In this document: positions 15,287 through 45,174 of the stretch, in pieces
How positions within the stretch are numbered: the first letter of the stretch is position 1
Layout: the number at the start of each line of letters is the position of its first letter
NCBI GenBank assembly: GCA_035533415.1
Contig: DATLTU010000014.1
Span: 1-63,812, forward strand
Source: Candidatus Limnocylindrales bacterium
GTDB lineage: Bacteria; Acidobacteriota; Terriglobia; Acidiferrales; UBA7541
Direction of reading: 5' to 3'
DNA length: 63,812 nt
Position numbers and translations under genes: made by a program
Notes under the pieces: generated by a model
The model's input: only the letters and a program-made list of their open reading frames with translations
What the model was told of the DNA's origin: nothing
The model's database searches: none

Positions 15287-16375
15287 ATGGCCAAGGCGCA
15301 AAGCACTCCCCGGCTTTCTTTCTTGGACCGATTTCTGACGCTATGGATTTTCGCGGCGATGGTCGGGGGCGTCGCGGCGGGCTACCTGGCGCCGGGAATC
15401 GTCCCCTTTCTGAACCGCTTCAACGTCGGGACCACCTCTATCCCGATTGCGATCGGACTCATCCTGATGATGTATCCGCCGCTCGCCAAGGTGAAGTACG
15501 AAGAACTGGGACGCGTGTTCAGTCACCGTAAGGTGCTGGCCTTATCGCTGATTCAGAATTGGGTCATCGGCCCGGTGCTCATGTTCGCGCTGGCAATTCT
15601 TTTTCTCCGAGACAAGCCGGAGTACATGACGGGACTGATATTGATAGGCCTCGCGCGGTGCATTGCCATGGTGATCGTCTGGAATGACCTGGCCCGGGGC
15701 GATCGTGAGTACGCCGCGGGCCTCGTGGCGCTAAACTCGATTTTTCAAGTTCTGTTTTTCTCCGTCTATGCGTACTTCTTCCTCGCCGTGTTGCCGCGAT
15801 GGTTAGGGATGACGGCAATCCGCGTGAACATCTCGATTCGCGACATCGCAGGGAGCGTTTTCATTTATCTTGGCATTCCGTTCCTCGCAGGTTTTCTAAC
15901 CCGGTTCGTGCTCTTTCGCGTGAAGGGCAAGCAGTGGTATCAGACCCGCTTCATCCCAAAAATCAGCCCGATTACCCTGATCGCACTGCTTTTTACCATC
16001 GTGGTGATGTTCTCGCTCAAGGGACAAATGATCGTTCGCTTGCCGCTCGACGTCATTCGAATCGCCATCCCGCTGACCATTTACTTCGTCGTGATGTTTT
16101 TTGTTTCTTTCTGGATCAGCGCGCGCGTGGGTGCAACCTACGCGGAATCCGCGACGCTTTCTTTTACTGCCGCGTCGAACAACTTTGAACTGGCGATCGC
16201 CGTGGCCATCGCGACCTTCGGAATTAATAGCGGGGCGGCCTTCGCTGCCGTGATTGGACCGCTCGTGGAGGTGCCCGTCCTGATCTCTCTGGTTAACGTC
16301 GCCCTGTGGATCAATAAGCACTACTTCGGCGGCCGATTTGAGACGGTGACCGTTTGTCCTAAGCCCGATGCTTGA
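15287..16375 (+). CDS. acr3: ACR3-family arsenite efflux transporter
   Basis: 362 aa. The N-terminus '[24 protein letters not shown]', '[19 protein letters not shown]' and 10 TM segments are characteristic of ACR3/ArsB (BART superfamily). Confidence 0.85.
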
Positions 16376-16557
16376 TGGGGACGGCACTCTGCCCACCCGA
16401 TTTTGGTGACACCGATGGAGCGATGAGCGAGGTCGCGGTACGAAATGTTTGGATTGTGCATGGAATGGCTCTGCCTCCCAAGATCGTCGCCGTTTCCGGT
16501 GCAACCGCAAATGGCCGGGGCCATTTGCGGTCAAAGACGCTTAGACCCCATGTAATT

Positions 16558-16573
16558 TGTGACCTGCGTCACA
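16558..16573. promoter_or_regulatory. Perfect CRP/FNR-type palindrome TGTGA-CCTGCG-TCACA
   Basis: Read directly. It is centred about 111 nt upstream of the ATG at 16677. Confidence 0.55.
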
Positions 16574-16676
16574 TGGTTTAGTGATCCGTTACCTTGCTGG
16601 CCGTACCTCATTCATTCAAAATGTCTAGCAGTATGACAAACATGATAAATTGTTATCGATAAGGGAGGTTATCATC

Positions 16677-17438
16677 ATGATGCAAAAGCGAAAGATACGA
16701 GGAGGACCAGCCGCCTTAGCTGCGGTGCTGGCCGCCTTTTCTGCGATTGTCTGGTTTGCGCCGCCCGTGGTGCATGCGGCGTCACCCCAAGCAGGATCCG
16801 TAGCGGGATATACGGTGCAGCAGGCTGCGGGCGGTACAATTTCCGGGAAAATTCTCTATAGCGGGAAGCCCGTGCGGCCGAAGAAAGTTACCGTGACGCA
16901 AGATAGAGGAACCTGCGGAAACATGAAGGAAATCTACCCTGTGCAAGTTGAGCAGGGCGGCGTAGCCAATGCAGTCGTCTGGCTTGACGACGCGACGCAC
17001 GGGAAAGCCTTCGCGTTCCCCGCGCCGGTCATTGATCAGAAGGGCTGCATGTTCATGCCGGACATCCTGCTGATGAAGCCCGGTGAGTTGAAGGTCTTGA
17101 ACAGCGACAAGGTCGCGCACAACATCCATGTCTATGCGAAGTCCAACCGCGGCTTCAATCAGGTCATGCCTCCGGGATCTGCTCCGCTGGAAATCCCGCT
17201 GTACCGCCCAGACACCGTGATCGTTCGCTGCGACGTTCATACCTGGATGCAGGGTAACGTCATCGTGGCGAAGAACCCGTACTACGTGCTGAGCGGGAGC
17301 GGCGGCAGCTTCACTCTCACCGACGTGCCTCCCGGCACGTACCATCTGAAGGTGTGGCAGAGCGCTATCGGCACACAGGAAAAGACCGTCACGGTACAAG
17401 CCGGTAAGACAGCAAGTGTAAATTTCACGCTCAAGTAA
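16677..17438 (+). CDS. Secreted cupredoxin (type-1 copper-like) domain nested in a CarboxypepD_reg-like fold, paralog 1
   Basis: RBS AAGGGAGG lies 8 nt upstream, and there is a signal peptide. 'MFMPDILLMKPGELKVLNSDKVAHNIHV' parallels the plastocyanin 'F.P....v..G..v.f.N.....HN' pattern. 'RCDVHTWMQG' is a C-x2-H-x2-M copper loop (amicyanin-like). The C-terminal 'GSFTLTDVPPGTYHLKVW...VTVQAGKTASVNFTL' is CarboxypepD_reg-like. Confidence 0.75.
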   Translation: MMQKRKIRGGPAALAAVLAAFSAIVWFAPPVVHAASPQAGSVAGYTVQQAAGGTISGKILYSGKPVRPKKVTVTQDRGTCGNMKEIYPVQVEQGGVANAVVWLDDATHGKAFAFPAPVIDQKGCMFMPDILLMKPGELKVLNSDKVAHNIHVYAKSNRGFNQVMPPGSAPLEIPLYRPDTVIVRCDVHTWMQGNVIVAKNPYYVLSGSGGSFTLTDVPPGTYHLKVWQSAIGTQEKTVTVQAGKTASVNFTLK

Positions 17439-17490
17439 CCCTTCCGGTGCAAGAACGGAAGAACCAATCGTTCGGATCGAGGCCGTCACA

Positions 17491-18861
17491 ATGAATCGGT
17501 GGAATAAAAAGGTTGACTGGGTCTACCTCGTGCTGTTCACGGGCACGGCTGCGTTTTTTGTGCTGATTTTTCCTGCTCACAAAGCGCAAGCCGTGCCCAG
17601 TTTTGCCCGCCAGACGGGCCTGGCTTGCAGCTCTTGCCACACGAATCCTCCGGAGCTCACGCCGCTCGGCCGGACGTTCAAACTGAATGGCTACTCGATG
17701 ACCGGAATTAAAGTCATCACCTCGCCACCGGAAAAAGAAAAAGCCGGCCTGACCCTTCTCTCGAATCTTCCGCTTGCGGTTTTGTTCGAGGTTTCGAACA
17801 CGGGAACGAATCGTCCGCAGCCGGGCACGCAAAACTGGAATTTTTCTCTTCCTCAGGATGTTTCCCTGTTTCTCGCGGGTGCCTATGCGACCCACTTGGG
17901 TGGCTTCGTGCAGGCCACCTATCATTCGCAAAACGATCATTTCAGCTGGGACAATACCGACATTCGCTACGCCAGGAACCGCTTGGTCAAAGGCAAAACT
18001 CTCGTCTACGGAATTGACTTGAATAACAATCCTACCGTCGAGGACCTGTGGAACGACACGCCCGCCTGGGGTTTCCCGTGGATCGCATCCGCATCCACGA
18101 CGACGCCCGCGGCTGTGCCCATCATCGACGGCCCACTCGGCCAGGATGTCGCTGGCATCGGCGGCTACGCCATGTGGAATGACCACCTCTACGGCGCGGC
18201 TACGATTTATCGCTCGTCCCATTTGGGACAGCCGCTGCCGAATCCCGGCACGAATTTCGATTTCAACATTCAGGGCGCGGCGCCGTACTGGCGCGCCGCC
18301 TGGCAGCAAACCATGGGCAACAGTTATTTGGAGTTCGGAACCTACGGCATGCACATGCGATCCACGCCGGGGGTCGTCATCGGGCCGGAAAATACGTATA
18401 CCGATTTTGCCCTGGATTCGCAATTCGAGCGTGTTCTTCCGAAAATCCACGACAACCTAATCAGTTTGCACGGGACCTACATCCGCGAAAACTCGAATTT
18501 GAATGCAGCCTTCGATTCGAACGGCGCGAGTTTCATTCCGCACCATTTGAATGCGTTTCAGGTGAACGCCGTGTACCATTTCGGGTATCGCTACGCTCCC
18601 GCGTTCGGATATTTCGTCACTACGGGAAACGCCGATCCGCTGTTATACGCGCCCGCGCCGCTGACGGGCAGCGCGAACGGCAGCCCGAATAGCAAGGGTT
18701 ACATCTTGAATTTCACCTACTGGCCGGTGCAGAACGTGCGTCTGGCGATGCAGTACACCGGCTATACGCAGTTCAATGGCGCGGGCACAAACTATGACGG
18801 CTCAGGGCGCAACGCCGGCGATAATAGCTCGCTGTATCTTTATTTGGGTTTGATCTTTTAG
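17491..18861 (+). CDS. Fused monoheme cytochrome c - outer-membrane beta-barrel (Cyc2-like architecture)
   Basis: 456 aa with a signal peptide ending 'AHKAQA'. A single CSSCH lies 13 residues into the mature chain ('VPSFARQTGLACSSCHT'). The remaining ~400 aa are Gly/Tyr/Asn/Thr-rich with alternating hydrophobicity. The C-terminus 'SLYLYLGLIF' has the terminal Phe typical of OMPs. Confidence 0.65.
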   Translation: MNRWNKKVDWVYLVLFTGTAAFFVLIFPAHKAQAVPSFARQTGLACSSCHTNPPELTPLGRTFKLNGYSMTGIKVITSPPEKEKAGLTLLSNLPLAVLFEVSNTGTNRPQPGTQNWNFSLPQDVSLFLAGAYATHLGGFVQATYHSQNDHFSWDNTDIRYARNRLVKGKTLVYGIDLNNNPTVEDLWNDTPAWGFPWIASASTTTPAAVPIIDGPLGQDVAGIGGYAMWNDHLYGAATIYRSSHLGQPLPNPGTNFDFNIQGAAPYWRAAWQQTMGNSYLEFGTYGMHMRSTPGVVIGPENTYTDFALDSQFERVLPKIHDNLISLHGTYIRENSNLNAAFDSNGASFIPHHLNAFQVNAVYHFGYRYAPAFGYFVTTGNADPLLYAPAPLTGSANGSPNSKGYILNFTYWPVQNVRLAMQYTGYTQFNGAGTNYDGSGRNAGDNSSLYLYLGLIF

Positions 18862-18968
18862 ATTCCCGTTTGAATTCATCGGGTGCCGTGATCTTCAAAA
18901 TCCAAACCCACGGCGAGCCCTCGGATCGAACGCTCGGGCCTGGGATTTGAGAAAGGCGGCTTGCGGAA

Positions 18969-19748
18969 ATGATGCCAAAACACGGAGAAATCAAAATGCG
19001 GGCGCGCGCGGTGGCTTTTGATCTGGCAATCTTGGGAGTTGCGGCGGCCCTGTCCGTAGGTACCGCAATGGCAGCTCATCGTCGAGCCTCGGCTGCCGAT
19101 TCACCTGCCACGGGCCAGATCACGGGCAAAATCTACTTCAAGGGAGTCAAGCCGAAGCTGGCGCGGATCAATATGGGCAAGGATCCCGTATGCGTGTCGG
19201 AGCATTCGGGAACCGTGTACGCGCAGGACGGCGCGGTGAACAGCGACGGAACCCTCCCCAACGCGTTCGTCTACATCAAGCAGGGCAGCGTAAATCTGGC
19301 GCGGCCCGCACCGCGCAACTCGGTGGATCTAACGCAAAAAGGTTGCATGTACGAGCCCCACGTTCTCGGCATCATGGTGGGCCAGCCGCTTCAGGTTCTT
19401 ACCCTGGATCCCACGACTCATAACATCCATGTAGTCGCAAAAATCAATCGTGAATGGAATGTCACGCAGCAGCCGGGTTCACCCTCCGCCATTCGCCGGT
19501 TCACGCATCCGGAGGTCATGATTCCGGTGCATTGCAACGAACATCCGTGGATGAAGGCGTACATCGGAGTGGTCGATAATCCCTTCTACGCAGTCACCGG
19601 CGGCGGCGGAAGTTTTGCCCTCAAGGATGTGCCGCCGGGCGACTACACCTTGGCGGTGTGGACCGCAACCTTCGGAACGCAGGAACAGAAGGTCGTCGTG
19701 CGGCCCGGCGAAATAGCAACCGTCAGCTTCACGTTTGTGAGCCGCTAA
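18969..19748 (+). CDS. Secreted cupredoxin / CarboxypepD_reg fusion, paralog 2
   Basis: 259 aa. Motifs: 'QKGCMYEPHVLGIMVGQPLQVLTLDPTTHNIHV', 'HCNEHPWMKAY' (C-x2-H-x2-M), 'GSFALKDVPPGDYTLAVW'. The start could instead be the ATG at 18996. Confidence 0.75.
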   Translation: MMPKHGEIKMRARAVAFDLAILGVAAALSVGTAMAAHRRASAADSPATGQITGKIYFKGVKPKLARINMGKDPVCVSEHSGTVYAQDGAVNSDGTLPNAFVYIKQGSVNLARPAPRNSVDLTQKGCMYEPHVLGIMVGQPLQVLTLDPTTHNIHVVAKINREWNVTQQPGSPSAIRRFTHPEVMIPVHCNEHPWMKAYIGVVDNPFYAVTGGGGSFALKDVPPGDYTLAVWTATFGTQEQKVVVRPGEIATVSFTFVSR

Positions 19749-19874
19749 CACGCATGAGTGCCAGCTTAATCGCGGGCACATCGCTTGCCCCGCCCATCTG
19801 GTCAATGCCGCGAAGGCGCTAGCCCGATGCTTGGCTCCGCCGTTTCCGGGGCAACCAGCGGCGGCGAGTCAAAT

Positions 19875-22430
19875 ATGAGCATTCGTCAGTACACGAATCG
19901 GCCTTCCGAAGCTGCGATTTCTGACGCGCTTGCTGAGTTGGCGTTAGACCTGCGCTGGTCATTCAATCATTCGGCGGATAAGTTCTGGGAGCAACTCGAC
20001 CCTGAACTCTGGGATCTCAGCCATAACCCTTGGATCGTCTTGCAGACCGTGTCGCAGGAAAAGCTTCAAAGTGCTGCCGCTGTCCCGGGTTTCCAAAAAC
20101 TATTGGAAGATCTTCGTCGGGAAAGACGGGCGGCGAAGGAGTCTCCTGCCTGGTTTCAAAAGATGCATCCTGATTCACCTCTCAAAACAGTTGCGTACTT
20201 CTCAATGGAGTTTATGTTGAGTGAGGCGCTGCCGATTTATTCCGGCGGCTTGGGGAACGTCGCTGGCGACCAGCTTAAGACCGCAAGCAATCTGGGCGTT
20301 CCGGTCATCGGTCTGGGTCTGCTCTACCAACAAGGCTACTTTCGGCAGGAAATCGACGCTCAAGGGCAGCAGCAGGCTCTTTATCCGTTCAACGATCCCG
20401 GACAACTGCCGATCACACCGCTGCGTGAACCGAATGGCGAATGGCTGCGTTTCCCGATCTCCTTTCTCGGTTCCCGGCTGTGGATTCGTGTCTGGCAGGT
20501 GCAAATTGGCCGTGCAACGCTATATCTTCTGGACACGAACGATCCCGCAAATACACCCGCGCACCGCGGCATTACCAGCGAACTTTATGGAGGCGGCCCG
20601 GAGTTGCGCCTCAAGCAGGAGCAAGTCCTCGGCATCGGAGGCTGGCGCTTGCTTCGGACCATCGGATTGCAACCTGAGGTCTGCCACCTGAATGAGGGCC
20701 ATGCTGCTTTCGCAGTGCTGGAGCGCGCACGTAGTTTCATGGCCGATAACAAGCAGCCGTTCGATCCAGCCCTCGCGATCACGCGCGCCGGGAACCTCTT
20801 TACCACACACACTCCTGTCGAGGCGGGATTTGATCGTTTTGCTCCTGAACTAATGGAAAAGTACTTTAAGAAGTATGCAGAAGAAGAATTGTTGATTCCG
20901 TTCCCGGACCTGCTTGCGCTCGGGCGGCGGGACCGTAATGATCCGTCGGAGCCGTTTAATATGGCGTATCTGGCGGTTCGTGGTAGCGGCGCCATCAACG
21001 GTGTCAGCCGGCTGCACGGTGAGGTCAGCCGCCGAATCTTTCAGGTGCTGTTTCCGCGATGGCCGGAATTTGAAGTCCCAGTGACGCATGTCACAAACGG
21101 CGTACACACGCCCACGTGGGATTCCGCCGCCGCCGATCGCCTCTGGGAGGCTGCCTGCGGAAAAGAGCGCTGGCGCGGAATTACTGCGGGACTGGAGCAG
21201 AGCCTTCGATGTGTCAGTGATTCCAACTTATGGCAACTGCGCACGAATGCCCGCAAGTCTCTCGTTGGATACGTTCGAAAACGTCACATCCGCCAGTTAG
21301 CAGACCGGGGCGCTTCCCCTGAGGATCTCGCGCTCGCCGCGCAGATACTCGATGCGAATGTCTTGACGCTTGGCTTTGCGCGCCGGTTCGCATCTTACAA
21401 GCGTCCCAATCTGCTTCTCCATGATTCGCAACGCCTCATTCAGATTTTAACGAATCGAGAACGTCCCGTCCAACTTGTTCTGGCTGGGAAGGCGCATCCG
21501 CAAGACGCGAACGGCCAAGACCTGATTCGCGAGTGGATCAATTTCGTCCGTCGCCAGGACGTGCGCCCGCGCGCGGTCTTCCTGAGTGACTATGATGTAT
21601 TGATGGCGGAACATCTCGTTCAAGGCATCGACCTCTGGATTAACACCCCGCGACGCCCTTGGGAAGCAAGTGGTACCAGCGGCATGAAAGTGCTCGTCAA
21701 CGGCGGGCTGAATCTTTCGGAGCTCGATGGCTGGTGGGCGGAAGCATATTCTCCCGACGTGGGTTGGGCCATTGGCGACGGACAGGAGCATGGTGATGAT
21801 CCGTCCTGGGATGCGGCCGAAGCGGATGCCCTCTATCAACTGCTCGAACAAGAGATCATTCCCGAATTTTATAATCGCAACGAAATGGGAATTCCATCCG
21901 GTTGGGTTGCGCGAATGCGGGAAAGCATGGCTCGGTTGACTCCTGCCTTCTCTTCAAATCGCGTCGTACGTCAATATACGGAAGAGCATTACTTGCCAGC
22001 CGCAAAAATTTATTGCGACCGGGCCGCAAACGGCGGCCGGCTCGGCGCCAGTCTGTTCGATTGGCACGCGGAACTCGCAAAGCACTGGCCAAGTTTACGT
22101 TTCGGTTCTGCTATTGCGGAGCAGCGCGGAGGGCGGCATACCTTTCACGTGCAGGTTTATTTTGATGAACTCGATCCAGAGGCTGTCCAAGTTGAACTCT
22201 ATGCGGAAGGCGAGAGCCACGGGCCGCCGGTTCGGGTGCCAATGAGTAAGGACGGGCGCCTCACCGGCTCCGCAAAGGGCTTCGTTTACACTGTGCAAAT
22301 TCCGGCGACTCGCCCCGTGGCGGACTACACTCCGCGAGCGATTCCCCGCCAAACTGGAGCGTCCGTGCCATTGGAGGCGTCGTTCATTCTCTGGCACGAT
22401 TCACCATCGTGGCGAGAATTCCCACGATAG
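19875..22430 (+). CDS. glgP: Alpha-glucan (glycogen/maltodextrin) phosphorylase, GT35
   Basis: Start trimmed to [10 protein letters not shown]. '[15 protein letters not shown]' is the PLP-lysine motif. The ~850-aa length and '[14 protein letters not shown]' are typical of the alpha-glucan phosphorylase subfamily. Confidence 0.9.
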
Positions 22431-22482
22431 CCGCCCATGTGAGAGCGAGCCGGTGCGATTTTTGAAAAAGGGGGAAATTACA

Positions 22483-24876
22483 ATGCCTTCTCATGATGCA
22501 GGGCAGGTTCACGCGTCCGTCGGCCCGATCCCCGAGGAAGAGCTCCGCAAAATGGACGCCTACTGGCGCGCCGCGAATTATCTTTCCGTCGGACAGATTT
22601 ATCTCCTCGATAACCCCCTGCTCCACGAGCGGCTGAAGATTGAGCACATTAAGCCGCGCCTGCTGGGTCACTGGGGCACGACGCCGGGACTGAACTTCAT
22701 TTATGTGCATTTCAATCGCCTCATCAAAAAACTTGATCTGAACGTCATTTACATCACTGGCCCGGGACACGGCGGTCCTGGTCTCGTCGCGAATGCGTAC
22801 CTCGAAGGCACCTACAGTGAGTTCTATCCGAACATTCCGCAGACTGCGGATGGCATGAAGCATCTATTCAAACAGTTTTCGTTCCCCGGAGGCATTCCGA
22901 GCCACGTCGCACCCGAAACGCCGGGTTCAATTCACGAAGGCGGCGAACTGGGCTATTCCATCGCGCATGCTTACGGCGCCGCATTCGATAATCCCGACCT
23001 GCTGGTTTGCTGCGTGGTCGGCGACGGTGAAGCGGAGACCGGGCCGCTGGCCGCCAGCTGGCACTCCAATAAATTCTTGAACCCGGCTCGCGACGGAGCT
23101 GTTCTTCCCGTTCTCCATTTGAATGGTTACAAAATCGCGAATCCAACCGTGCTCGGGCGCATGAACGATGATGAGTTGTCTCATCTCTTCCGGGGATACG
23201 GTTACAACCCCTACTTCGTCGAAGGGCATGTGCCTGAAGCCATGCATCAACTCATGGCGCGCACGCTCGATACCATTGTCGATGAAATCGGGGCCATTCA
23301 GCGCGGCGCCCGCGATGGGCGTGCGGCCGGCCTCCCTGTCTGGCCCATGATCATTTTGCGAACGCCAAAGGGGTGGACCGGACCGAAAATAGTCGACGGA
23401 AAACCCGTGGAAAACACTTGGCGCGCCCATCAGGTTCCCGTTACGGATCTCGCGTCGCGGCCGGACCATTTGAAAATCTTGGAAGATTGGATGAAGAGCT
23501 ACCGGGCAGAAGAGCTCTTTGACCGGCGGGGCAAATTAGTTCAGGAGCTGGCCGAGCTCGCCCCGAAGGGCGACCGCCGCATGGGGGCAAATCCGCATGC
23601 GAATGGCGGGTTGCTGCTCAAGGACCTCGTGATGCCCGACTTTCGCGAATATGCAGTGACCGTGCCGAAGCCCGGCGGCCAAGTTGCGGAAGCCACACGA
23701 ATTCTCGGCACCTTCCTCCGCGACCTCATGAAACTGAACTCGGATGAGAAGAATTTCCGGGTTTTTGGACCGGACGAAACGGCCTCAAACCGGCTCGAGG
23801 CTCTCTACGAGGCCACTTCCAAAGTCTTTATGGAGCGGATTCTGCCCACCGACGAGAACCTCTCTCTTGAGGGCCGCGTGATGGAAGTGCTCAGCGAGCA
23901 CATGTGCCAGGGATGGCTCGAAGGCTATCTGTTGACCGGCCGTCACGGTTTCTTCTCCTGCTACGAAGCCTTCATTCACATCGTGGACTCGATGTTCAAC
24001 CAGCACGCAAAATGGCTGAAGGTCACGCGCCGGATACCCTGGCGTCGCCCGATTGCCTCGCTAAACTATCTGCTGACCTCGCATGTTTGGCGCCAGGATC
24101 ACAATGGTTTTAGCCACCAGGACCCCGGCTTCATCGACCACGTCATGAACAAGAAAGCGGATGTCGTGCGCGTCTATCTGCCTCCTGATGCGAACACACT
24201 GCTCTCCGTGGCGGATCACTGCCTTCGTAGCCGTAACTACGTCAACGTTATTGTTGCTGGGAAGCAGCCGGCTCTGCAATGGCTCGACATGGAATCTGCG
24301 ATCGAACATTGCACGAACGGACTCGGGATTTGGGAGTGGGCCAGCACGGATGACGGAAGTGAGCCGGATGTCGTGATGGCCTGCGCTGGGGATATTCCCA
24401 CACTGGAAACCTTAGCAGCCGTGGATCTCTTGCGGACCCATTTCCCAGATATCAAGATCCGTCTCGTAAACGTAGTGGATCTGATGACCTTGCAACCTCA
24501 GAGCGAACATCCTCACGGGATTTCCGATCCAGAGTTCGATTCCATGTTCACAGCCGATAAGCCCATCATCTTCGCTTACCATGGCTATCCGTGGCTGATT
24601 CATCGCCTGACGTATCGACGGACGAATCACGATAATCTGCACGTGCGCGGCTATAAGGAAGAAGGCACGACGACAACTCCATTTGACATGGCTGTATTAA
24701 ATGATCTGGACCGCTTCCATCTGGCCGGAGATGTCGTCGACCGCGTGCCGCGTCTGCGGGAAGTCGGGGCGCATTTCAAACAGTTTCTGCGCAACAAGCT
24801 GGTCGAGCATCGGCAATACATTGTCCGATACGGCGACGACATGCCGGAGATCCGCGACTGGAAATGGCCCTACTGA
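22483..24876 (+). CDS. xfp: Phosphoketolase (xylulose-5-P/fructose-6-P)
   Basis: '[17 protein letters not shown]', '[13 protein letters not shown]' and '[10 protein letters not shown]' are phosphoketolase signatures. About 797 aa. Confidence 0.95.
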
Positions 24877-24879
24877 ACG

Positions 24880-26085
24880 ATGAAAATACTCATTCTCAAT
24901 TCCGGTTCCAGCAGCCAGAAGAGCAGTTTATACGACATCGAGGGCCCTCTTCCGGCGCGTCCGCCAAGTCCGGTATGGGAAGCCAGGATCGAATGGGATG
25001 GTCGCACGGCGGAGATTCAGGTGAAGGCCCAAAAAGGCGCCACGTTTCATAGCCGCGTAAAAATTGATTCCCGGCACCAGGCGCTAGAGCAGATGTTTCG
25101 CTCGCTCTGGGAAAGCGACGTTCGCGCGGTCGAGAAGCCCTCGGAAATCCACGTCGTAGGTCATCGGATTGTTCACGGCGGTCGCCGATTCGAAGAGCCG
25201 GTCATCATTACCGCCGAAGTGAAACGCGCCATAGCAAGCGCTTCTGCATTTGCGCCTCTTCACAATCGAGTTGAACTCGAAGGTATCGCGATCATCGAAG
25301 AACTTCTGGGGACGGTTCCTCAGGTCGCGGTCTTCGATACCGCCTTTCATCATAGTCTTCCCTTCGCGGCGGCTGTGTATCCCGGACCCTATGAATGGTT
25401 GGCGCAGGGGATTCGGCGGTACGGCTTTCATGGCATCAACCATCAATACTGTGCCGAGCGCGCGGCGCAACTGCTAGGAAAGCCCCTTACTTCTCTCAGG
25501 CTTGTTTCGTGTCATCTTGGAAATGGTTGTTCGCTTGCAGCCATTGACGGTGGCCGCAGTGTCGACACGACTATGGGGTTCACTCCTCTGGATGGATTGA
25601 TGATGGGCACGCGCTCGGGATCGGTCGATCCGAGCATTCTGACTTACCTGATGCGAGAAAAACGAATCGACGCAGGCCGAGTCGATGAGATTCTCAATAA
25701 CGAGTCCGGCCTCCTCGGCATTTCGGGAGTTTCGAGCGACATGCGCAAGATCTTGGAGGCCATGAACTCGGGGAATGACAGGGCAGAACTGGCCTTTGCT
25801 ATCTTCGTCCATCGTCTCCGGTCCGGCATCGGGTCCATGGTTGCCGCACTCGGCGGTCTGGATGCTCTGATTTTCACGGCGGGAATTGGCGAGAATGCAG
25901 CCGCTGTTCGAGAAGCCGCCTGCGCGCGCTTCAGCCATCTTGGCCTAACGCTGGATGCGGTCAAAAACAGTCAGTCGCCGGTTGATCAAGACATCGCCGA
26001 GCGCGATTCATCCGTGCGCGTGCTGGTCATCCATGCCGAGGAGGATTGGGCTATCGCTCGGGAATGTTGGACGATGACTCAGTAA
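24880..26085 (+). CDS. ackA: Acetate kinase
   Basis: 401 aa. Motifs: 'ILILNSGSSSQK', 'GHRIVHGG', 'RYGFHGINHQY', 'FTAGIGEN'. It begins 4 nt after the xfp stop. Confidence 0.95.
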   Translation: MKILILNSGSSSQKSSLYDIEGPLPARPPSPVWEARIEWDGRTAEIQVKAQKGATFHSRVKIDSRHQALEQMFRSLWESDVRAVEKPSEIHVVGHRIVHGGRRFEEPVIITAEVKRAIASASAFAPLHNRVELEGIAIIEELLGTVPQVAVFDTAFHHSLPFAAAVYPGPYEWLAQGIRRYGFHGINHQYCAERAAQLLGKPLTSLRLVSCHLGNGCSLAAIDGGRSVDTTMGFTPLDGLMMGTRSGSVDPSILTYLMREKRIDAGRVDEILNNESGLLGISGVSSDMRKILEAMNSGNDRAELAFAIFVHRLRSGIGSMVAALGGLDALIFTAGIGENAAAVREAACARFSHLGLTLDAVKNSQSPVDQDIAERDSSVRVLVIHAEEDWAIARECWTMTQ

Positions 26086-26271
26086 GGTTGTCCCTTGGGT
26101 GAGCGGCGAAAAATTCCATTGTTCTTCATCTACCGAAATCGAATCACCGCTCCAGCAAAAGCGTCGAAAATCTCGCTCTTGCGATAAATATTCTGAGCGC
26201 GGATTCCGCCCATAAAATCGCCGTTATGCGTACCGCCTACGCGATACAATCGACTGGCTAGAGGAGGCGAG

Positions 26272-27159
26272 ATGCGCGCGGAAGTCGAGCAGGCGATTCA
26301 AGCGCTCCAGGACAACCAGCCGGGCGCCACCGAGCAAGCTCTCGCTCTCCTGCAGCAGACTGTATTTTCTTTCAGCATGAAAGTCTGTGGCCAGCGCGAG
26401 GATGCGGAAGACACCGCGCAAGAGACATTGCTAAGAGCCATCTCGCAGCTAGCGAGTTTTAGCAGCTCGAAAGCACTGGCCGTCTGGCTCTACAAGGTGG
26501 CGAAGACTCAGTGCCTGATGAGCCGCCGCAAAAGCAAATTCGCTCCTCCGCAGCATCTCTCGCTCGAACTCTTGATGCCAAATCCCCAGGAATTGGAACG
26601 CCTGACGGCCCCCAGTTTTGCAATCCCCGATAAGACCTTGCTGCGTAAGGAACAGACGGAGCAACTGCACAAGGCTATCTTGAAACTTCCGCCCGACTTC
26701 CGGCTCATTCTTGTTTTGCACGATATGGAGGAGCTCTCGACCAAGGAGGTCGCCAGCGTCACAGGATTGCGTGAAGGTACCGTGCGCGTGCGCCTGCACC
26801 GCGCACGAGTGTTTCTACGGAACGTTCTGGCCGGAGCAGGACACTCGACCCACCGAACCACGAAATCGCGTTCCCACCAGCGCAGTCATTGCAAGCAGTT
26901 GTTTCGCGAGCTCTCGGATTATCTCGACGGCGCCCTCGATCCCTCGCGATGCGACGCGCTGGAGCGGCACCTCCCCGATTGCCAGCCCTGCAAGATATTC
27001 CTCAGCAGCCTTGAGCACACGGTCAAGGAATTGCGACGCCGGCAACTCCCTGGACTCAAGGACCGGCCATCTCGCAAGATGCGAACGGCCCTCTTTGCGG
27101 AGTACCGGCGCGCGATTCAAGCATCAGCCCACGCCCCACGGCCTGGAACACCTCGCTAG
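26272..27159 (+). CDS. ECF sigma-70 factor with a C-terminal fused ZAS (zinc anti-sigma) domain
   Basis: RBS GAGGAGG. Region 2 is 'AEDTAQETLLRAI' and region 4 is 'LSTKEVASVTGLREGTVRVRLHRARVFL'. The C-terminal extension 'CKQLFRELSDYLDGALDPSRCDALERHLPDCQPC' is C-x25-H-x3-C-x2-C. No TM segment follows. Confidence 0.8.
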   Translation: MRAEVEQAIQALQDNQPGATEQALALLQQTVFSFSMKVCGQREDAEDTAQETLLRAISQLASFSSSKALAVWLYKVAKTQCLMSRRKSKFAPPQHLSLELLMPNPQELERLTAPSFAIPDKTLLRKEQTEQLHKAILKLPPDFRLILVLHDMEELSTKEVASVTGLREGTVRVRLHRARVFLRNVLAGAGHSTHRTTKSRSHQRSHCKQLFRELSDYLDGALDPSRCDALERHLPDCQPCKIFLSSLEHTVKELRRRQLPGLKDRPSRKMRTALFAEYRRAIQASAHAPRPGTPR

Positions 27160-27406
27160 CCCGAGATTCCGGCTCGATTCTCTCGTCCGCACCTGCAAAC
27201 TCAGCCGCATCGATTGCGGGGAATCGCTGGGAACAGGAAGATACCTACGTCCCCCGGGGAATGCGAACCGTCGCACGGGCCATGGCAGGGTGCCTGCTCC
27301 CACGCGTCGCTGGGGCTTTTCGCGCACCTTAGATATCTCCACGCGTCCGAAGAGACATAAACGTCGCAGTATCAATTAAATAGAAGTTAGCCTTTTGGAA
27401 CGGCAG

Positions 27407-28300
27407 ATGCTTTATCTATTATGTTCGGGAGCAAACAACATGCCAACCGAAACAGTTGAAGCACCTCCCAGCAAAATCGTAGACCACAAACCCGCAGTTG
27501 CCGACACCACAACCCTGCTGCTTCGCCAGCCCGTAACAACGACCGTGCCCGCAAGGCCAGTCTTAGCAACGTCGCTGCTAGAAATGAATCGTATGGGGCG
27601 TCCGCGGCGCGGTGTGGATTACATAGTTTCTCTGATTTTCCATTCGGCCTTGCTCGCACTATTGCTCGTGGTCCCGCTCTACTTTGCGCAGGGACTCCAC
27701 ATGAATCAGTTTGCGACCACGTTCCTTGTTGCACCACCACCCCCACCACCACCTCCTCCGCCTGCCACAGCTGCGCAAGTCGCGGCACAACGGCCTCGGA
27801 CGTCAATCACCAAAGGCGCGATCATCAGCCCAACCGTGATTCCCAAGCAGATCTTGATGGTCAAAGAGGTGCCGTTGCCGGCCGACGTGAGCGCCGGGGT
27901 TGTCGGCGGAGTTCCCGGAGGAGTCCCCGGCGGACAAATTGGCGGAGTCCTCGGCGGAATTCTTGGTGGGCTTCCCAGAGCTGTTCGTCCGCCTGCTCCC
28001 AAGCCGTTGCGGCCAATCCGCATCGGCGGAGATGTAAAACCACCCCGCCTTATCTACGGCCCCAGTCCCGTCTATCCGGCCATTGCCAAGGTCGCGCACA
28101 TCCAGGGCGACGTAATCATCGATGCCATTATTGACACGCGCGGAAACGTTGTTCAGATGCACTTCCTATCCGGGCCACCTCTACTGATGAATGCGGCGAT
28201 GGATGCGGTGAGCCGCTGGAAATATCAGCCGACTCTGCTCAACGGTGAGCCCGTCGCCGTGGAATTTCAGGTGACAGTTCAATTTCAGCTGTCGCAGTAG
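27407..28300 (+). CDS. tonB: TonB-family energy transducer
   Basis: It has a single TM ('IVSLIFHSALLALLLVVPLYF'), a P11 tract, a Gly-rich linker and a C-terminal 'YPAIAKVAHIQGDVIIDAIIDTRGNV...KYQP' TonB_C fold. The start is uncertain (TTG 27395, ATG 27407 or ATG 27440). Confidence 0.85.
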   Translation: MLYLLCSGANNMPTETVEAPPSKIVDHKPAVADTTTLLLRQPVTTTVPARPVLATSLLEMNRMGRPRRGVDYIVSLIFHSALLALLLVVPLYFAQGLHMNQFATTFLVAPPPPPPPPPPATAAQVAAQRPRTSITKGAIISPTVIPKQILMVKEVPLPADVSAGVVGGVPGGVPGGQIGGVLGGILGGLPRAVRPPAPKPLRPIRIGGDVKPPRLIYGPSPVYPAIAKVAHIQGDVIIDAIIDTRGNVVQMHFLSGPPLLMNAAMDAVSRWKYQPTLLNGEPVAVEFQVTVQFQLSQ

Positions 28301-28605
28301 CGCCTCGCTCCTCGAACGCTCGAACCACTGGCAACGGCCCGATGGAAAGCCCTGAAATGCCTCTCAAACTAATCCTAGCGGCTATTCTCCCGCGCCGACA
28401 CCACCAGGGAAACTCGTCCGCCGCACCGGGGCGCGAATGTTGGCGCACGCCACTGCGGCATCTCGCGCACGTGCGACATGGCATCAGCCTCGGTCGCTGT
28501 ATAAATGCTCTCATATCAGACGCCTAGGAACGCCCGACTTGGCACGCAGGGTGCTTTCAGTGCTTCTAGCACATTGGCGCACAGCCAATGCTTTGAGAGG
28601 AGCCC

Positions 28606-29538
28606 ATGAGTACAGCGACCAACGCAGCAGCAGTCAAGGTCACGCCGGCCAGTCGCATAGATGCCGACCATCAAGTTTCGCTCTCCAACATTCTTGTCGC
28701 CACGGACTTCTCTCCCTCATCGGAAACAGCCCTCGGTTACGCGCTCGCGATTGCGCGGCGTTACGAATCGCACGTCTATGTCGCGCACGTCATCCTCCCT
28801 AGCGCCTATCAGTTCGGTGCTCCCGAAGCGATTGAGCCAACATACGATTTGGTGCGCCGGCACGCCGAAGAAGAGATGGCCACGCTGCTCGTCTCAGGCC
28901 GGCTGCGGAGCGTCGTCCATGAAGTTTTGCTGGAAGAGGGCCTGCTCTGGCCCACGCTCGCCAGTATGATTCAGGACCACTCGATTCAGCTCGTGGTCAT
29001 CGGCACCCATGGCCGCACTGGGGCTAGGAAGTTGCTCCTTGGCTCAGCCGCGGAAGAAATTTTCCGCCTGGCCGATGTCCCGGTGATGACCGTTGGCCCG
29101 CAAGTGAAAACCGAGCCGCCGCAAGAAGTCAAACTCAAACGCATCCTCTACGCGACCGACTTCACCGCGAAAGGCGAACGCGCCGCCGCCTATGCTCTCT
29201 CCCTCGCGCAGGAACACCAAGCGGAGTTGACGCTCCTGCACGTCATCGAAAACGGGGACGGCGTATCGTCCAAGAACATCTCGGCGCTGCGCGCGGTGTT
29301 CCTGAAGCGTCTCGATGCGATTGTGCCCCCGGAAGCAAGGTCGTGGTGCGATCCCGCGTGCGTCGTGACCGTGGGGAATTCTGCCGATGAGATTCTTGCC
29401 GTGGCCCGCGCACGCGCGTCGGACTTGATCGTTCTCGGCGTGCGCCATGCTACGGGGTTCGCGGGTCACATTCTCGCGAGCCGCGCCTACAAGGTTGTTT
29501 GCCAGTCGGAGTGCCCCGTGCTCACGGTCCGTGGCTAG
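28606..29538 (+). CDS. Tandem universal stress protein (2x UspA domain)
   Basis: 310 aa. Motifs: 'ILVATDFS', 'IGTHGRTGARKLLLGSAAEEI', second domain 'ILYATDFT...LGVRHATGFAGHILASRAYKV'. Confidence 0.85.
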   Translation: MSTATNAAAVKVTPASRIDADHQVSLSNILVATDFSPSSETALGYALAIARRYESHVYVAHVILPSAYQFGAPEAIEPTYDLVRRHAEEEMATLLVSGRLRSVVHEVLLEEGLLWPTLASMIQDHSIQLVVIGTHGRTGARKLLLGSAAEEIFRLADVPVMTVGPQVKTEPPQEVKLKRILYATDFTAKGERAAAYALSLAQEHQAELTLLHVIENGDGVSSKNISALRAVFLKRLDAIVPPEARSWCDPACVVTVGNSADEILAVARARASDLIVLGVRHATGFAGHILASRAYKVVCQSECPVLTVRG

Positions 29539-29634
29539 CGAAGCCAGCGGCGAAGGTTCGTTCCTGGGGCGCGGCAGGCAATACGCAACACGATTCTTCG
29601 GAGACGCTTTCTCTGTTGTTCGGGAGGAAAGCAA

Positions 29635-30150
29635 GTGAAAGAACAACACATAGTCCGCCAATCCGTCATGGGTCCCACGCCCGTGAAGCTGCTGAAATTT
29701 GAAGAACTCTCCGCCCAAATCGGGGAAATCCGCTGCGCGACAGAACGCCATGCCGTTGCATCCAGTGACCGCGCACGCCGATGGAATCTCGAGGATTGGA
29801 TTCAGGCCGAATTCAAATTCCTGCATCCCGCGCCTTGTGAAGTGACAGCATCGAACGGCGCGATCACCGTTCGCGCCGAGGTTTCCGACTTCAGCGCGGA
29901 AGACCTCAAGGTTAGTGTCGAGCCTTCGCGCGTGGCCATCGTCGGAAAGAAACAACCTGCGAAGGAGCGCGGAGACGAAGCAAAACGCTCAGCCGAATTC
30001 CGCCCCCGCCGCCTGCTCCGCGTTCTTGTCCTCCCGGCGGAAGTAGATCCGGCGAAAGCACAGGCAGTGGTCAAGAACGGCATTCTTGAGGTCATCATGC
30101 CAAAGGTTGCCGCGACCCCGAAAGTGGAGCGTAAATCCAGGGCTGCATAA
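29635..30150 (+). CDS. DUF2934-like N-terminus fused to an Hsp20/alpha-crystallin domain
   Basis: GTG start with RBS GGGAGGAAAG. 'ARRWNLEDWIQAE' matches the DUF2934 'DWL.AE' motif. 'ITVRAEVSDFSAEDLKVSVEPSRVAIVGKK...VVKNGILEVIMPK' is an ACD. Confidence 0.65.
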   Translation: MKEQHIVRQSVMGPTPVKLLKFEELSAQIGEIRCATERHAVASSDRARRWNLEDWIQAEFKFLHPAPCEVTASNGAITVRAEVSDFSAEDLKVSVEPSRVAIVGKKQPAKERGDEAKRSAEFRPRRLLRVLVLPAEVDPAKAQAVVKNGILEVIMPKVAATPKVERKSRAA

Positions 30151-30325
30151 GACTGCCGCATGAAACACCGAGCGAAAGCCCCGCAGCCACACGGGCAAAC
30201 TACCGAACTCTGAATAAGTTTCGGGTGCTATTGATCAAGCAAGCAAGAAGGACAGAGAGACAGTCGGCAGAATCAAGTTGGGTATTTCCGCGCGATCTGC
30301 CGGCATTCCTTCGCGGAGGGTGCCT

Positions 30326-31117
30326 ATGAAATCAAAAAAAGTAATCCCTATCACCAGACGCTGGTGGCCGAGGATGCTCGTGTTTGGATTTGGCATGTTC
30401 CTGGTTGCTGGTTTTCTCTTTTTCGGCGCTCATGCAGCCAGAGAGCAATCGGCGCGGGTATCTGCCGCCACCGGTTCCATCGTCGGAACAGTAAAGCTCC
30501 TCGGCCTACCTCCAGCGCCTCAAGTGATCAACATGAGCTTCGACCCCGTTTGCGCGTCGGCCCATAAGAAGCCCGTGTATACGCAGGAAGTGAAACTGGG
30601 GCCGAATGACGCGCTCGAAAATGTCGTTGTGTTCTTGAGTTCAGGACTTCGCAATACTGCATTCGTGCCGCCCTCGCGTCCTGCCGTGCTCGACCAAAGG
30701 GGATGCATGTTCGAACCGCACGTCTTGGCGGTCATGGTCGGCCAAAAACTGGAAATTCTCAATAGCGACAAAACGCCTCACGGCATCCACGTCCTGGCGC
30801 GCAATAACGAGCAATGGAATCAATTTCAACCCGTTGGCGGCCCGCCCATCGTGACAGCTTTTTCCCACCCCGAGGTGGCCGTTCCCGTGATCTGTTCGTG
30901 GCACCCGCTTCACTTTTGGATGAAAGCCTACGTCGCTGTTCTTAGCGACCCGCATTTTCAGGTCACGGGGCGCGACGGCAGTTTTGCCTTGGAGGGCTTG
31001 CGACGGGGGACGTACACGATCGAGGCGTGGCAGGAGAAGTACGGCATCCTAAAGAGGCAAGTTACGGTTCGCCCGGGACAAACTACCACCCTGGATTTTG
31101 TCTTTAAGGCCGACTAG
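30326..31117 (+). CDS. Cupredoxin / CarboxypepD_reg fusion, paralog 3 (variant copper loop)
   Basis: RBS GGAGGG. The N-terminus 'ITRRWWPRMLVFGFGMFLVAGFLFF' is a possible Tat-like signal or anchor. Motifs: 'QRGCMFEPHVLAVMVGQKLEILNSDKTPHGIHV', 'ICSWHPLHFWMKAY' (the loop is extended by PLH), 'GSFALEGLRRGTYTIEAW'. Confidence 0.75.
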   Translation: MKSKKVIPITRRWWPRMLVFGFGMFLVAGFLFFGAHAAREQSARVSAATGSIVGTVKLLGLPPAPQVINMSFDPVCASAHKKPVYTQEVKLGPNDALENVVVFLSSGLRNTAFVPPSRPAVLDQRGCMFEPHVLAVMVGQKLEILNSDKTPHGIHVLARNNEQWNQFQPVGGPPIVTAFSHPEVAVPVICSWHPLHFWMKAYVAVLSDPHFQVTGRDGSFALEGLRRGTYTIEAWQEKYGILKRQVTVRPGQTTTLDFVFKAD

Positions 31118-31267
31118 CTCCTTTGATTCGCCATTACAATGCCCTGCGTGAAATGGCGCGGCTTCCTGTCGCAACGGCTTGAGAGCGAAACGGCAAGCGA
31201 AACTCCCATCCTTCACCCGAACGGAATTGGCGTCCCTGCCGACGCCTTTTCAGAATATGATAGACAT

Positions 31268-31627
31268 TTGAAGAGAGCATCTATCTTTCTGGTGAGTCTT
31301 GTGCTGGCGGCCTTGCTGTCCGCTTGCGGCCGGGATCTCTCCAAGGAATCCGACGCTGAATTGGGTCTAAGTGCCCAGCAAAGCAACGGCCGGCGCATTT
31401 TTCAGCTCTATTGTGCTTCCTGCCACAACGCATATTCTTCCAGTGGTTCGAATGGGCCGGCCATGAAGGGAGTGTTCAAAAGTAAATATCTGCCGAGCGG
31501 CCTGCCCGCCAACGATCGGTTTGTGAAGCAGGCGATCGTGAATGGCCGCGGGATGATGCCCGCGTTTGGCGAGTCCCTCGGCCCGCAACAGGTTGATGAT
31601 CTGATCGCCTATCTGCACAGCCTGTAG
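31268..31627 (+). CDS. Monoheme class-I cytochrome c lipoprotein
   Basis: The TTG at 31268 gives (M)KRASIFLVSLVLAALLSACG (lipobox). It has 'CASCHN' and a distal Met in 'GRGMMPAF'. The track's longer N-terminus has no signal-like logic. Confidence 0.7.
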   Translation: MKRASIFLVSLVLAALLSACGRDLSKESDAELGLSAQQSNGRRIFQLYCASCHNAYSSSGSNGPAMKGVFKSKYLPSGLPANDRFVKQAIVNGRGMMPAFGESLGPQQVDDLIAYLHSL

Positions 31628-31865
31628 AACCGCCGGAAACTTCTCGCCGAAGAGAGAGAATGTCCGCATCGTGATGGAACCGGTTCGTACCAAGGCTTCG
31701 GTCCTGGAGCTACTCCGGCGCGTAGGGATTCATTCGACGGCTCGCCGAGCCTCTGAAAATTTTTTTCGCCGATGAAATGCCCTCATGAATTTCCACAATT
31801 TCTCAGAAATTCCCAATGCATCGCCTTGCAGTTGCGAAATATCCGCCTCGGCCCTTCCGTACTGG

Positions 31866-31881
31866 TGTGATAAGAGTCACG
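31866..31881. promoter_or_regulatory. CRP/FNR-like site TGTGA-TAAGAG-TCACG
   Basis: Read directly, in the 512-bp gap upstream of the decaheme gene. Confidence 0.4.
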
Positions 31882-32006
31882 CCCCTTCGTGACTGCAGTC
31901 ATTGCGGCCGCTGCGCCGATCGTGGAAATTTGTACTGCTTGGCCGAGGAGGGTGGCATTTGGAGGACATTCCGCAGGCGGCGAATTCTGTAAAGGGAATG
32001 CAGAAG

Positions 32007-32022
32007 AGTGACCACGGTCACA
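32007..32022. promoter_or_regulatory. CRP/FNR-like site AGTGA-CCACGG-TCACA
   Basis: Read directly. It is centred about 124 nt upstream of the ATG at 32139. Confidence 0.5.
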
Positions 32023-32138
32023 GTCAAAACATCAGATTTATGTATAAATTTTCGGTCGAAGGAAGTTTGATGTCGCCGACGTCGGGCCCTGATTGATGTT
32101 GAGTCCTTGAAGGCGCTGGAAGTTGCCTAGGAGGATAG

Positions 32139-35552: not shown

Positions 35553-35620
35553 AGCGAGGCCGAAATTCGATGGCGCGGTGTGGGATCATTCATAATCGGA
35601 AGCTCAGCAGAGAAAGGCGG

Positions 35621-35968
35621 ATGCAGATGAACTGTCAAATGGCTAAAATTATCCAGAAGGTACTTTTCGCGTGCGCGCTCGTTTTTTTCCTGAACGTATC
35701 CGCGCGAGCCGATGACTCGGCGAGTCTTTATAAAACAAAATGCGCCGTGTGTCATGCCGCCGACGGCAGCGGCAACTGCCTAATGGGGAAGAAATTGGGC
35801 GCGAAGGACCTGCGCTCCGACGAGGTGCAGAAGAAAACTGACGCGGAGTTGACCGCCGTCATAACCGACGGCATGGGCAAGACCATGCCGGCATACAAAG
35901 GTAAGCTGACGGACGCTCAGATCAAGGAGCTCGTCTCCTACATCCGCGAGATTGCCAAAAAGAAGTAA
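35621..35968 (+). CDS. Periplasmic monoheme class-I cytochrome c (MtoD-like position)
   Basis: Signal 'KVLFACALVFFLNVSARA', 'CAVCHAADGSG' and distal Met 'GKTMPAY'. The start is trimmed to ATG 35621. Confidence 0.75.
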   Translation: MQMNCQMAKIIQKVLFACALVFFLNVSARADDSASLYKTKCAVCHAADGSGNCLMGKKLGAKDLRSDEVQKKTDAELTAVITDGMGKTMPAYKGKLTDAQIKELVSYIREIAKKK

Positions 35969-45162: not shown

Positions 45163-45174
45163 GACCGCGAACCC

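Follow-up and report, generated by a model that had tools for sequence, protein, structure and literature searches.

Amicyanin-like cupredoxins nested in a CarboxypepD_reg-like sandwich beside predicted Cyc2-like and Mto-like genes of an acidobacterium

In Acidithiobacillus ferrooxidans, within its rus operon (cyc2-cyc1-acoP-coxBACD-rus), Cyc2 is encoded together with two cupredoxins, AcoP and rusticyanin, and with the aa3 oxidase towards which the electrons are passed (PMC10654088). The same logic is found in the stretch of DNA that we have analysed, 63,812 nucleotides of contig DATLTU010000014.1 (assembly GCA_035533415.1, placed by GTDB in the Acidiferrales of the Acidobacteriota), which we call the window. 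It contains three paralogous genes for predicted copper proteins, named A, B and C in this work, two of them on either side of a Cyc2-like gene and the third at the head of an Mto-like cluster. We lean towards reading these proteins as members of a family of exported type-1 copper carriers with a core role between complex III and the aa3 oxidase, from which A, B and C would have been recruited to outer-membrane modules for Fe(II) oxidation. There are also differences from the rus operon. Its cox genes stand together with cyc2, whereas here they lie outside the cyc2 cluster, and our host is probably a soil acidobacterium of neutral to mildly acidic conditions, whereas Acidithiobacillus is an extreme acidophile.

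AcoP is associated with the oxidase, as the family described here is. The copper loop of rusticyanin is C-x4-H-x4-M; in both rusticyanin and AcoP the loop lengths differ from those of the family, and neither protein has the sandwich scaffold that holds the copper domain of A, B and C. Among the 50 best Foldseek matches of a structural model of B there is no rusticyanin, and AcoP (7z3i) appears with a probability of 0.35 and a query-normalised TM-score of 0.13. Taken as an analogy, the likeness of A, B and C to rusticyanin and AcoP appears to lie in function and context, not in specific sequence or structure.

The closest match of the family domain in both sequence and structure is amicyanin from Paracoccus denitrificans (PDB 1AAC and mutants), with which it shares the Greek-key fold, the four ligands, the loop C-x2-H-P-[F/W]-M and the motif H-N-[IV]-H at the first ligand. 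Amicyanin, however, is a free-standing protein of 105 residues that carries electrons from methylamine dehydrogenase to cytochrome c551i, and its identity to the family domain is about 20%. Compared with it, the family domain is without the N-terminal strand, is nested in another domain, has an invariant Cys at the position of Met28 and has no mau genes nearby. A different kind of parallel is offered by auracyanin, sulfocyanin, halocyanin and plastocyanin, type-1 copper carriers that connect a quinol-oxidizing complex to a terminal oxidase or reaction centre and are often anchored to the membrane. The position of auracyanin-type carriers is the one implied for the family by its N-terminal anchors and by clusters in which it stands between genes for a Rieske protein, cytochrome b and a multihaem cytochrome c, on one side, and cox/cta genes on the other. 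These four proteins belong nevertheless to other cupredoxin subfamilies, and we know of none that occurs as an insertion in a CarboxypepD_reg sandwich.

Two further systems are useful for comparison. In caa3-type oxidases a cytochrome c is fused to subunit II, and this donor fusion is mirrored by one protein of the family (P0160), in which the family domain is joined to CoxB; the caa3 donor is a haem protein, whereas that of P0160 is a predicted copper protein, found on a single contig. The Mto pathway of Sideroxydans and Gallionella (mtoA-mtoB-mtoD-cymA) has the same parts in the same order as the window, where the genes at 32139-36654 follow the Sideroxydans arrangement, the operon being named as in PMC10654088. 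The known Mto cluster has no cupredoxin, whereas here a cupredoxin and a lipoprotein cytochrome c precede it and the barrel protein has no match to the MtrB/PioB model of Pfam.

Predicted copper site and nested topology of the three paralogues

The three genes lie on the plus strand. Paralogue A (16677-17438, 253 residues), directly upstream of the Cyc2-like gene, has the loop CDVHTWM (Cys185/His188/Met191), the predicted N-terminal ligand His148 and a Cys pair at residues 80 and 124. Paralogue B (18969-19748, 259 residues), which has the Cyc2-like gene directly upstream, has the loop CNEHPWM, and its predicted copper residues are His151 (19419), Cys189 (19533), His192 (19542) and Met195 (19551). 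In paralogue C (30326-31117, 263 residues) the loop is extended to CSWHPLHFWM, from Cys190 to Met199, with two candidate His in it, and the predicted N-terminal ligand is His152 and the Cys pair 76/127. All three proteins share a cupredoxin nested in a CarboxypepD_reg-like sandwich and are 33-42% identical over their whole mature length (pairwise tblastn E values of 1.8e-37 for A-B, 2e-36 for A-C and 4e-61 for B-C); a tblastn search of the window with the paralogues gave no fourth copy. A sequence-only reading of this DNA had reported the three reading frames, the conserved blocks common to them and the three loops; the list of open reading frames and our alignment bear out the frames and the blocks, and the loops read as it gave them.

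Each paralogue has exactly three Cys, the one in the loop and a pair in the motifs D..C and Q(K/R)GC. The same reading had pointed to this pair as conserved, and not one of the 129 full-length representatives of 50%-identity clusters of the family that were surveyed lacks it. It had also offered periplasmic or outer-membrane-tethered proteins as alternatives. Judged by eye, the N-termini of A, B and C combine basic with hydrophobic residues, finish on small ones (VHA, AMA and AHA) and have no Cys, so that they look like Sec signal peptides or signal anchors and not like those of lipoproteins. Tethering to the outer membrane by a lipid anchor was rejected, since a lipobox Cys is missing from all three. 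One member of another subclade of the family (locus L096) does have a lipobox, as does the cytochrome c beside C.

An AlphaFold2 model of B was built from an alignment of 50 sequences, with a mean pLDDT (predicted local distance difference test) of 86.5, 208 of the 259 residues at a pLDDT of at least 90, a pTM (predicted template modelling score) of 0.79 and disorder confined to the signal region. When this model was compared to the PDB with Foldseek, the top 42 matches were all cupredoxins at a probability of 1.0, the best of them with target-length-normalised TM-scores of 0.66-0.72; amicyanin, the cupredoxin domain of Thermus NirK, a Nitrosopumilus cupredoxin, Bacillus Cupredoxin_1, plastocyanin, pseudoazurin and CuA domains were found. 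The profile of B aligned by hhalign with Paracoccus amicyanin at 84.8% probability (E 6.6e-6), pairing His151/Cys189/His192/Met195 of B with His53/Cys92/His95/Met98 of amicyanin and, in addition, the invariant Cys126 of B with amicyanin Met28, a residue that sits in the hydrophobic patch round the exposed His ligand. The amicyanin sequence in this alignment was entered by hand after 1AAC, and independent PDB sequence matches and the Foldseek matches agree with it. A profile of the three paralogues against PDB sequences gave marginal amicyanin matches only (E ~0.005). These comparisons uphold the earlier suggestion that the inserted domain is a cupredoxin. No significant match to a cupredoxin or family-specific model was obtained with Pfam and NCBIfam on the whole proteins or with Pfam on the excised segments, so that membership rests on the fold and on profile-profile evidence.

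The ligand positions H, C, H and M are occupied in 135, 135, 134 and 133, respectively, of the 135 single-domain representatives of 50%-identity clusters that were surveyed. The second His of the HNIH block was considered as a fifth ligand and was ruled out, since this position varies across the family (N, R, K, Q or Y in about 18% of the representatives). By predicted fold and ligand pattern, the domain of A, B and C is thus of the amicyanin-like type-1 copper class of cupredoxins. An insert of about 40 residues carries an invariant Cys, which probably forms a disulfide with the invariant Cys that, by alignment, the cupredoxin has at its end next to the predicted copper site; for the loop that bears the former a docking or gating role is possible.

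The topology of the sandwich was read from the model of B. Its first strand (residues 49-58, GQITGKIYFK, 19113-19142) is followed by a Cys-loop of about 40 residues, with a short helix and Cys75, and by a second strand (residues 100-106, NAFVYIK, 19266-19286); then come the cupredoxin (residues ~115-203, 19311-19577) and the C-terminal part of the sandwich (residues 204-259, 19578-19745). The native proteins A, B and C score 43.0, 34.5 and 36.7 bits against CarboxypepD_reg (PF13620; cut-off 32.3), and the match covers only their last ~50 residues and profile positions ~28-82 of 82. When the inserts were spliced out in silico at points taken from the strands of the model, the match of A widened to positions 1-82 with 53.6 bits, that of B to 13-80 with 43.4 bits and that of C to 10-80 with 43.2 bits, a gain of 7-10 bits. 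A profile of 20 spliced members aligns end to end with residues 27-104 of 9gbc_A (E 0.0024), a TonB-dependent receptor of known structure whose N-terminal domain is CarboxypepD_reg-like. Since both the spliced proteins and the spliced profile match a complete CarboxypepD_reg domain, the domain insertion proposed by the sequence-only reading is supported, as it is by the strand order of the model. Its details have to be corrected, because two strands and not one precede the cupredoxin, and the insert is not a single cupredoxin of ~130 residues but comes in two pieces, the ~40-residue Cys-loop between strands 1 and 2 and a cupredoxin of ~90 residues between strands 2 and 3. The amicyanin-like fold and loop are known features; the cupredoxin in a CarboxypepD_reg sandwich with an invariant Cys pair near the predicted copper site appears to be new. 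We found no curated model, solved structure or paper in the searched literature for a cupredoxin nested in this way or for the gene contexts of the family.

Genes that accompany the paralogues and their relatives

The gene between A and B (17491-18861, plus strand) encodes a protein of 456 residues that we describe as a Cyc2-like fused monohaem cytochrome-porin. Cyc2 proteins are defined by a signal peptide, a single CXXCH, at least 365 residues and a 16-stranded beta-barrel porin, with the motif AXPXFAR[Q/K][T/Y] upstream of CXXCH and PXL downstream of it (Keffer et al. 2021, PMC8406198). The protein reads AVPSFARQT-GLA-CSSCH-TNP-PEL, in agreement with both published motifs; CXXCH occurs once in it, and its hydrophobic N-terminus, which ends in AQA, is by eye a signal peptide. 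Its AlphaFold2 model, of moderate confidence (mean pLDDT 67.5), has 16 long beta strands at residues 95-455, plus one strand of four residues, after a short helical haem region. No Pfam or NCBIfam model matched the protein. Its homologues are named solely 'hypothetical protein' or 'cytochrome C', and because these names are uninformative membership was judged by the published motif definition. By its motifs and its predicted barrel, the gene agrees with the published sequence definition of Cyc2.

The sequence-only reading had described two of the copies as bracketing this gene, which is indeed the arrangement here, and had asked whether such an association could be random. A genome scan of the 80 loci closest to B, all from metagenome-assembled genomes (MAGs) of Acidobacteriota, speaks against chance within the A and B subclades. 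In 38 of the 73 assessable loci the gene directly upstream of the relative of B is Cyc2-like, and the proportion follows identity to B: 15/15 at 60% or above, 17/24 at 55-60%, 6/19 at 50-55% and 0/15 below 50%. The complete A-cyc2-B triple was found at 10 other loci, and in the A subclade, with 11 members, the Cyc2-like gene is always downstream. The intergenic gaps are short and the genes on the same strand, with 52 and 107 bp within A-cyc2-B and 21 bp from C to the cytochrome c that follows it. When 16300-20000 and 30000-36900 were scanned for promoters and terminators, the intergenic gaps held no more than shuffled sequence would give; operon structure is therefore deduced only from shared strand and short gaps. 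Relatives often have, just before A or cyc2, a gene for a protein of about 265 residues that by eye resembles a Crp/Fnr-type regulator (L001:6770-7567 and six other Cyc2-linked loci); it is not at that position in the window.

The third copy had been said to open a region resembling MtoAB, and this was corroborated by the genes downstream of C, all on the plus strand. The first of them, 21 bp after C, encodes a class I monohaem cytochrome c (31139-31627; Pfam Cytochrome_CBB3 and Cytochrom_C), which is probably tethered to a membrane because it has a lipobox (LAALLSAC); its annotated ATG lies ~45 residues before the signal peptide, and this start may be wrong. A decahaem cytochrome of the DmsE/MtrA/MtoA family follows (32139-33095; TIGR03508, 263.8 bits with a cut-off of 192.2; 10 CXXCH). 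The gene that abuts it (33096-35552) encodes a predicted outer-membrane barrel of 818 residues, MtoB/MtrB-like by position and size only: no Pfam model, that of MtrB/PioB included, matched it at E<=0.1, and the only hit was a weak sub-threshold one to GSU2204. This barrel gene is kept beside mtoA at locus L084. In the MtoD position there is a gene for a soluble monohaem cytochrome c (35549-35968; Cytochrome_CBB3 and Cytochrom_C), and then one for a CymA-like membrane multihaem quinol dehydrogenase of the NapC/NirT family (36037-36654; Cytochrom_NNT, E 1.8e-12; 3 canonical CXXCH). The latter completes the mtoA-mtoB-mtoD-cymA-like set and had gone unmentioned before.

A metagenome scan seeded with C gave 80 loci, of which only four are close orthologues (77-100% identity) and 76 have at most 51% identity. 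The extended loop, as CSWHP[LF]HFWM, is common to 4/4 orthologues, and their gene order is usp-hsp20-C-cytochrome c-(...)-mtoA-mtoB wherever the contig reaches. Just upstream of C in the window (26272-30150, plus strand) there are genes for a sigma factor of the extracytoplasmic function type, whose C-terminal extension is rich in Cys, and for a TonB-like protein, tandem usp and Hsp20; the order usp-hsp20-C is kept on all four orthologue contigs.

The family as a whole is large. B has 989 matches at E<=1e-5 in a 90%-clustered database and 2,471 clusters at 50% identity with E<=1e-30, including some giant CarboxypepD_reg repeat proteins, and a member linked to bc/cox genes gave at least 7,459 matches as a query. 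NCBI names these proteins 'carboxypeptidase regulatory-like domain-containing protein' and JGI 'plastocyanin'; the named matches are mostly from Acidobacteriota, Terriglobia and 'Candidatus Acidoferrales', and at least one cluster is from Phycisphaerales. In the searched literature we found no characterised member and no description of cupredoxins beside cyc2 in Acidobacteria; PMC12442345 mentions neither Acidobacteria nor copper.

The earlier idea of electron shuttles dedicated to outer-membrane conduits does not survive this wider sampling. Most sampled members lie between the genes of a Rieske/cytochrome b/multihaem-c complex and those of the aa3 oxidase or of haem A synthesis, Cyc2-like genes disappear below 50% identity to B, as given above, and the Mto-linked form was found in four close relatives only. 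In the genome scan, most loci that are without a Cyc2-like gene have genes for cytochrome b (PetB-like), a cytochrome b C-terminal part (PetD-like) and a cytochrome c of ~1,060 residues with 8 CXXCH, then the family member, and after it CoxB-CoxA-CoxC-CoxC-CoxD or CtaA-CtaB (Pfam-confirmed). Among the loci with at most 51% identity to C, a multihaem cytochrome is directly upstream in 41/56 that could be assessed and ctaA or coxB downstream in 46/60. The long contigs L162-L166 have the full order COX1-COX3-COX3-COX4-Rieske-cytb-cytbC-multihaem c-[family]-CtaA-CtaB. The CoxB of these clusters is without a fused cytochrome c (272 residues in a representative). Two fusions point to the same partners: P0160 joins the family domain to COX2_TM and COX2 in one open reading frame, confirmed on the contig and beside a stand-alone copy, and P0261 joins COX4_pro to the family domain. 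N-terminal membrane anchors with Pro-rich linkers are present in many members.

Gene context follows clade in a neighbour-joining tree of 175 family sequences from all loci. Clade C is Mto-linked; clade A, with the loop CD[VI]HxWM, has cyc2 downstream and clade B has it upstream; a large bc/cox clade has CNVHPWM or CNQHPWM, and a further clade, with CNLHPWM, is in neither context. Judged from these sequences, each of A, B and C stands for a subclade restricted to a lineage; two of the subclades are linked to Cyc2 and one to Mto. The loci of the CNLHPWM subclade (L096, L108, L110, L121, L122, L141, L158 and L159) have no Cyc2 or bc/cox neighbours, and several of them have one or two adjoining genes for predicted membrane proteins of ~160-205 residues, sometimes with a Ser/Thr kinase. 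Tandem members with two modules also occur (P0123, P0127, P0135, P0150, P0164, P0196, P0204, P0217 and P0234); in several of them the Cys pair, the copper ligands or both have gone from one module, which looks as though it had been kept only as a scaffold.

Proposed role and alternative explanations

A broader respiratory role with lineage-specific recruitment therefore replaces the notion of a family dedicated to conduits. At its core, the family would shuttle electrons one at a time through the periplasm, from the multihaem cytochrome c of the Rieske/cytochrome b complex to the CuA centre of the aa3 oxidase. In a lineage like the Acidiferrales, recruitment to redox modules of the outer membrane would have involved three paralogous subfamilies, A and B flanking Cyc2, and C heading, together with the lipoprotein cytochrome c, the MtoA/MtoB/MtoD/CymA-like cluster. 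In these modules they would accept electrons on the periplasmic side of the Fe(II)-oxidizing conduit and hand them inward towards the oxidase, a role like that of rusticyanin and AcoP of the rus operon. Type-1 copper proteins are typically high-potential, and for this reason, together with the oxidase-side context, we favour the inward, Fe(II)-oxidizing direction. On balance we think that this reading is fairly probable. A bolder version, in which the family would be the general carrier from complex III to aa3 oxidase across the Acidobacteriota, replacing soluble cytochrome c, and A, B and C, each with a copper loop tuned in its own way, the periplasmic acceptors of Cyc2 and MtoA in iron oxidizers of soil and peat, is more speculative and we are inclined to doubt it.

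Several results weigh against the proposed respiratory carriers. The Pfam models Copper-bind (PF00127) and Cupredoxin_1 (PF13473) have no match at E<=0.1 on the whole proteins A, B and C, and the sole Pfam match of the excised cupredoxin segments is that of C to PF00127 at E 0.13. The window has no cox genes, so the oxidase acceptor that we propose is taken from other genomes. Both sets of loci were chosen by similarity to B or C, and their context fractions are no census of the whole family; the two fusions were seen once each, on single contigs; and the neighbour-joining tree carries no support values. Moreover, conduits of the DmsE family can run either way, and a position beside ctaA/ctaB and coxB would equally fit an assembly factor of the oxidase.

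Such a factor would be a copper chaperone that brings Cu to CuA or CuB, like PCuAC or Sco, while the copies beside Cyc2 and Mto genes would metallate or protect something else. It would account for the dominant position of the family, immediately upstream of the haem A genes ctaA/ctaB and beside cox genes, and the fusions to CoxB or subunit IV would fit it too; the family also has an invariant extra Cys pair near the predicted metal site, and thiol pairs are typical of Sco-type chaperones. We consider it unlikely, however, in view of a classical type-1 His/Cys/His/Met set on a C-x2-H-x2-M loop that agrees residue for residue with amicyanin, and of best structural matches that are electron-transfer cupredoxins. 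The A, B and C clades adjoin cytochromes and porin-cytochromes with no copper enzyme nearby, and the oxidases of the bc/cox clusters need an external electron donor, because their CoxB has no cytochrome c fused to it. If the proteins are electron carriers, the flow could still be outward, to the Cyc2-like and MtrAB-like conduits for reduction of extracellular Fe(III) or humic substances. A DmsE/MtrA decahaem, a porin and a NapC/NirT quinol dehydrogenase form the standard outward pathway in Shewanella, and the related genomes are MAGs of peat and soil Acidobacteriota. Against this direction, to which we give little credence, a high-potential type-1 copper suits the transfer from Fe(II) to an oxidase better than the reduction of Fe(III) minerals, the core context of the family is the oxidase end of the chain, and Cyc2 has been validated so far only as an Fe(II) oxidase (PMC8406198).

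It might also be argued that A, B and C are spare paralogues of a respiratory cupredoxin that keep their neighbours through inherited synteny, with no functional coupling. The association is confined to related Acidobacteriota MAGs, and the orthologues of C are on only four contigs, from sibling metagenomes. Yet cyc2 and B stay adjacent at protein identities as low as 51-55% and where all other flanking genes have changed, the same-strand gaps are short (the 52, 107 and 21 bp already mentioned), and each context clade has its own conserved variant of the copper loop, which suggests adaptation to a partner; mere inheritance seems to us about as improbable as outward flow. The least likely explanation, in our opinion, is a copper site that is catalytic or sensory (a periplasmic Fe(II)/Cu(I) oxidase, a nitrosocyanin-like site or a redox sensor), with the sandwich as a module for binding substrate or envelope. 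The extended loop with an extra His in the C clade would suit this idea, red and green cupredoxins with open coordination exist (AcoP, nitrosocyanin), and, according to Pfam descriptions, CarboxypepD_reg-like domains often bind carbohydrates or serve as plugs or spacers. On the other hand, the family hardly varies in its axial Met and its compact amicyanin-type loop, as is typical of closed electron-transfer sites, and no further conserved acidic or His residues that hint at an open site were identified in the family.

Surroundings of the modules and significance

Between the Cyc2 and Mto modules (19785-26085, plus strand) there are genes for an alpha-glucan phosphorylase, a phosphoketolase and an acetate kinase, which suggest an organotroph whose iron-redox modules are accessory. 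The latter two are again near the Cyc2 module in L001, and in L083 they stand upstream of C along with the sigma factor, usp and hsp20; in L084 the phosphorylase is kept with sigma factor, usp and hsp20. The region upstream of A may be a metal-handling neighbourhood: two P-type ATPases, an efflux triad of the resistance-nodulation-division type (AcrB-like, HlyD/CusB-like and OEP) and an SBF/ACR3-like transporter are encoded at 2582-13186 and 15287-16375. Farther downstream, fatty acyl-reductase-like (NAD_binding_4/Sterile) and AMP-binding enzymes and a pyruvyl-transferase-like gene (42754-52305, plus strand) may form a lipid or wax biosynthesis locus, unrelated to the cupredoxin genes, and two adjacent giant Sortilin/Vps10-BNR repeat proteins of ~1,100 residues are encoded on the minus strand at 54760-61380.

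Acidobacteriota are among the most abundant bacteria of soil, yet hardly anything of their respiratory chains has been characterised on the periplasmic side. With matches at E<=1e-30 to 50%-identity clusters that number in the thousands, and with its genes lying within the combined complex III/IV cluster, the family is a concrete candidate for the carrier between these two complexes. The periplasmic acceptors of Cyc2 and MtoA are, in turn, largely unknown outside Acidithiobacillus, and A, B and C are candidates for them that can be expressed, with three natural loop variants on which the tuning of the redox potential may be studied. If the bolder version of the proposed role is true, iron oxidation that depends on Cyc2 could be recognised in genomes of Acidobacteria by the B clade as a marker.

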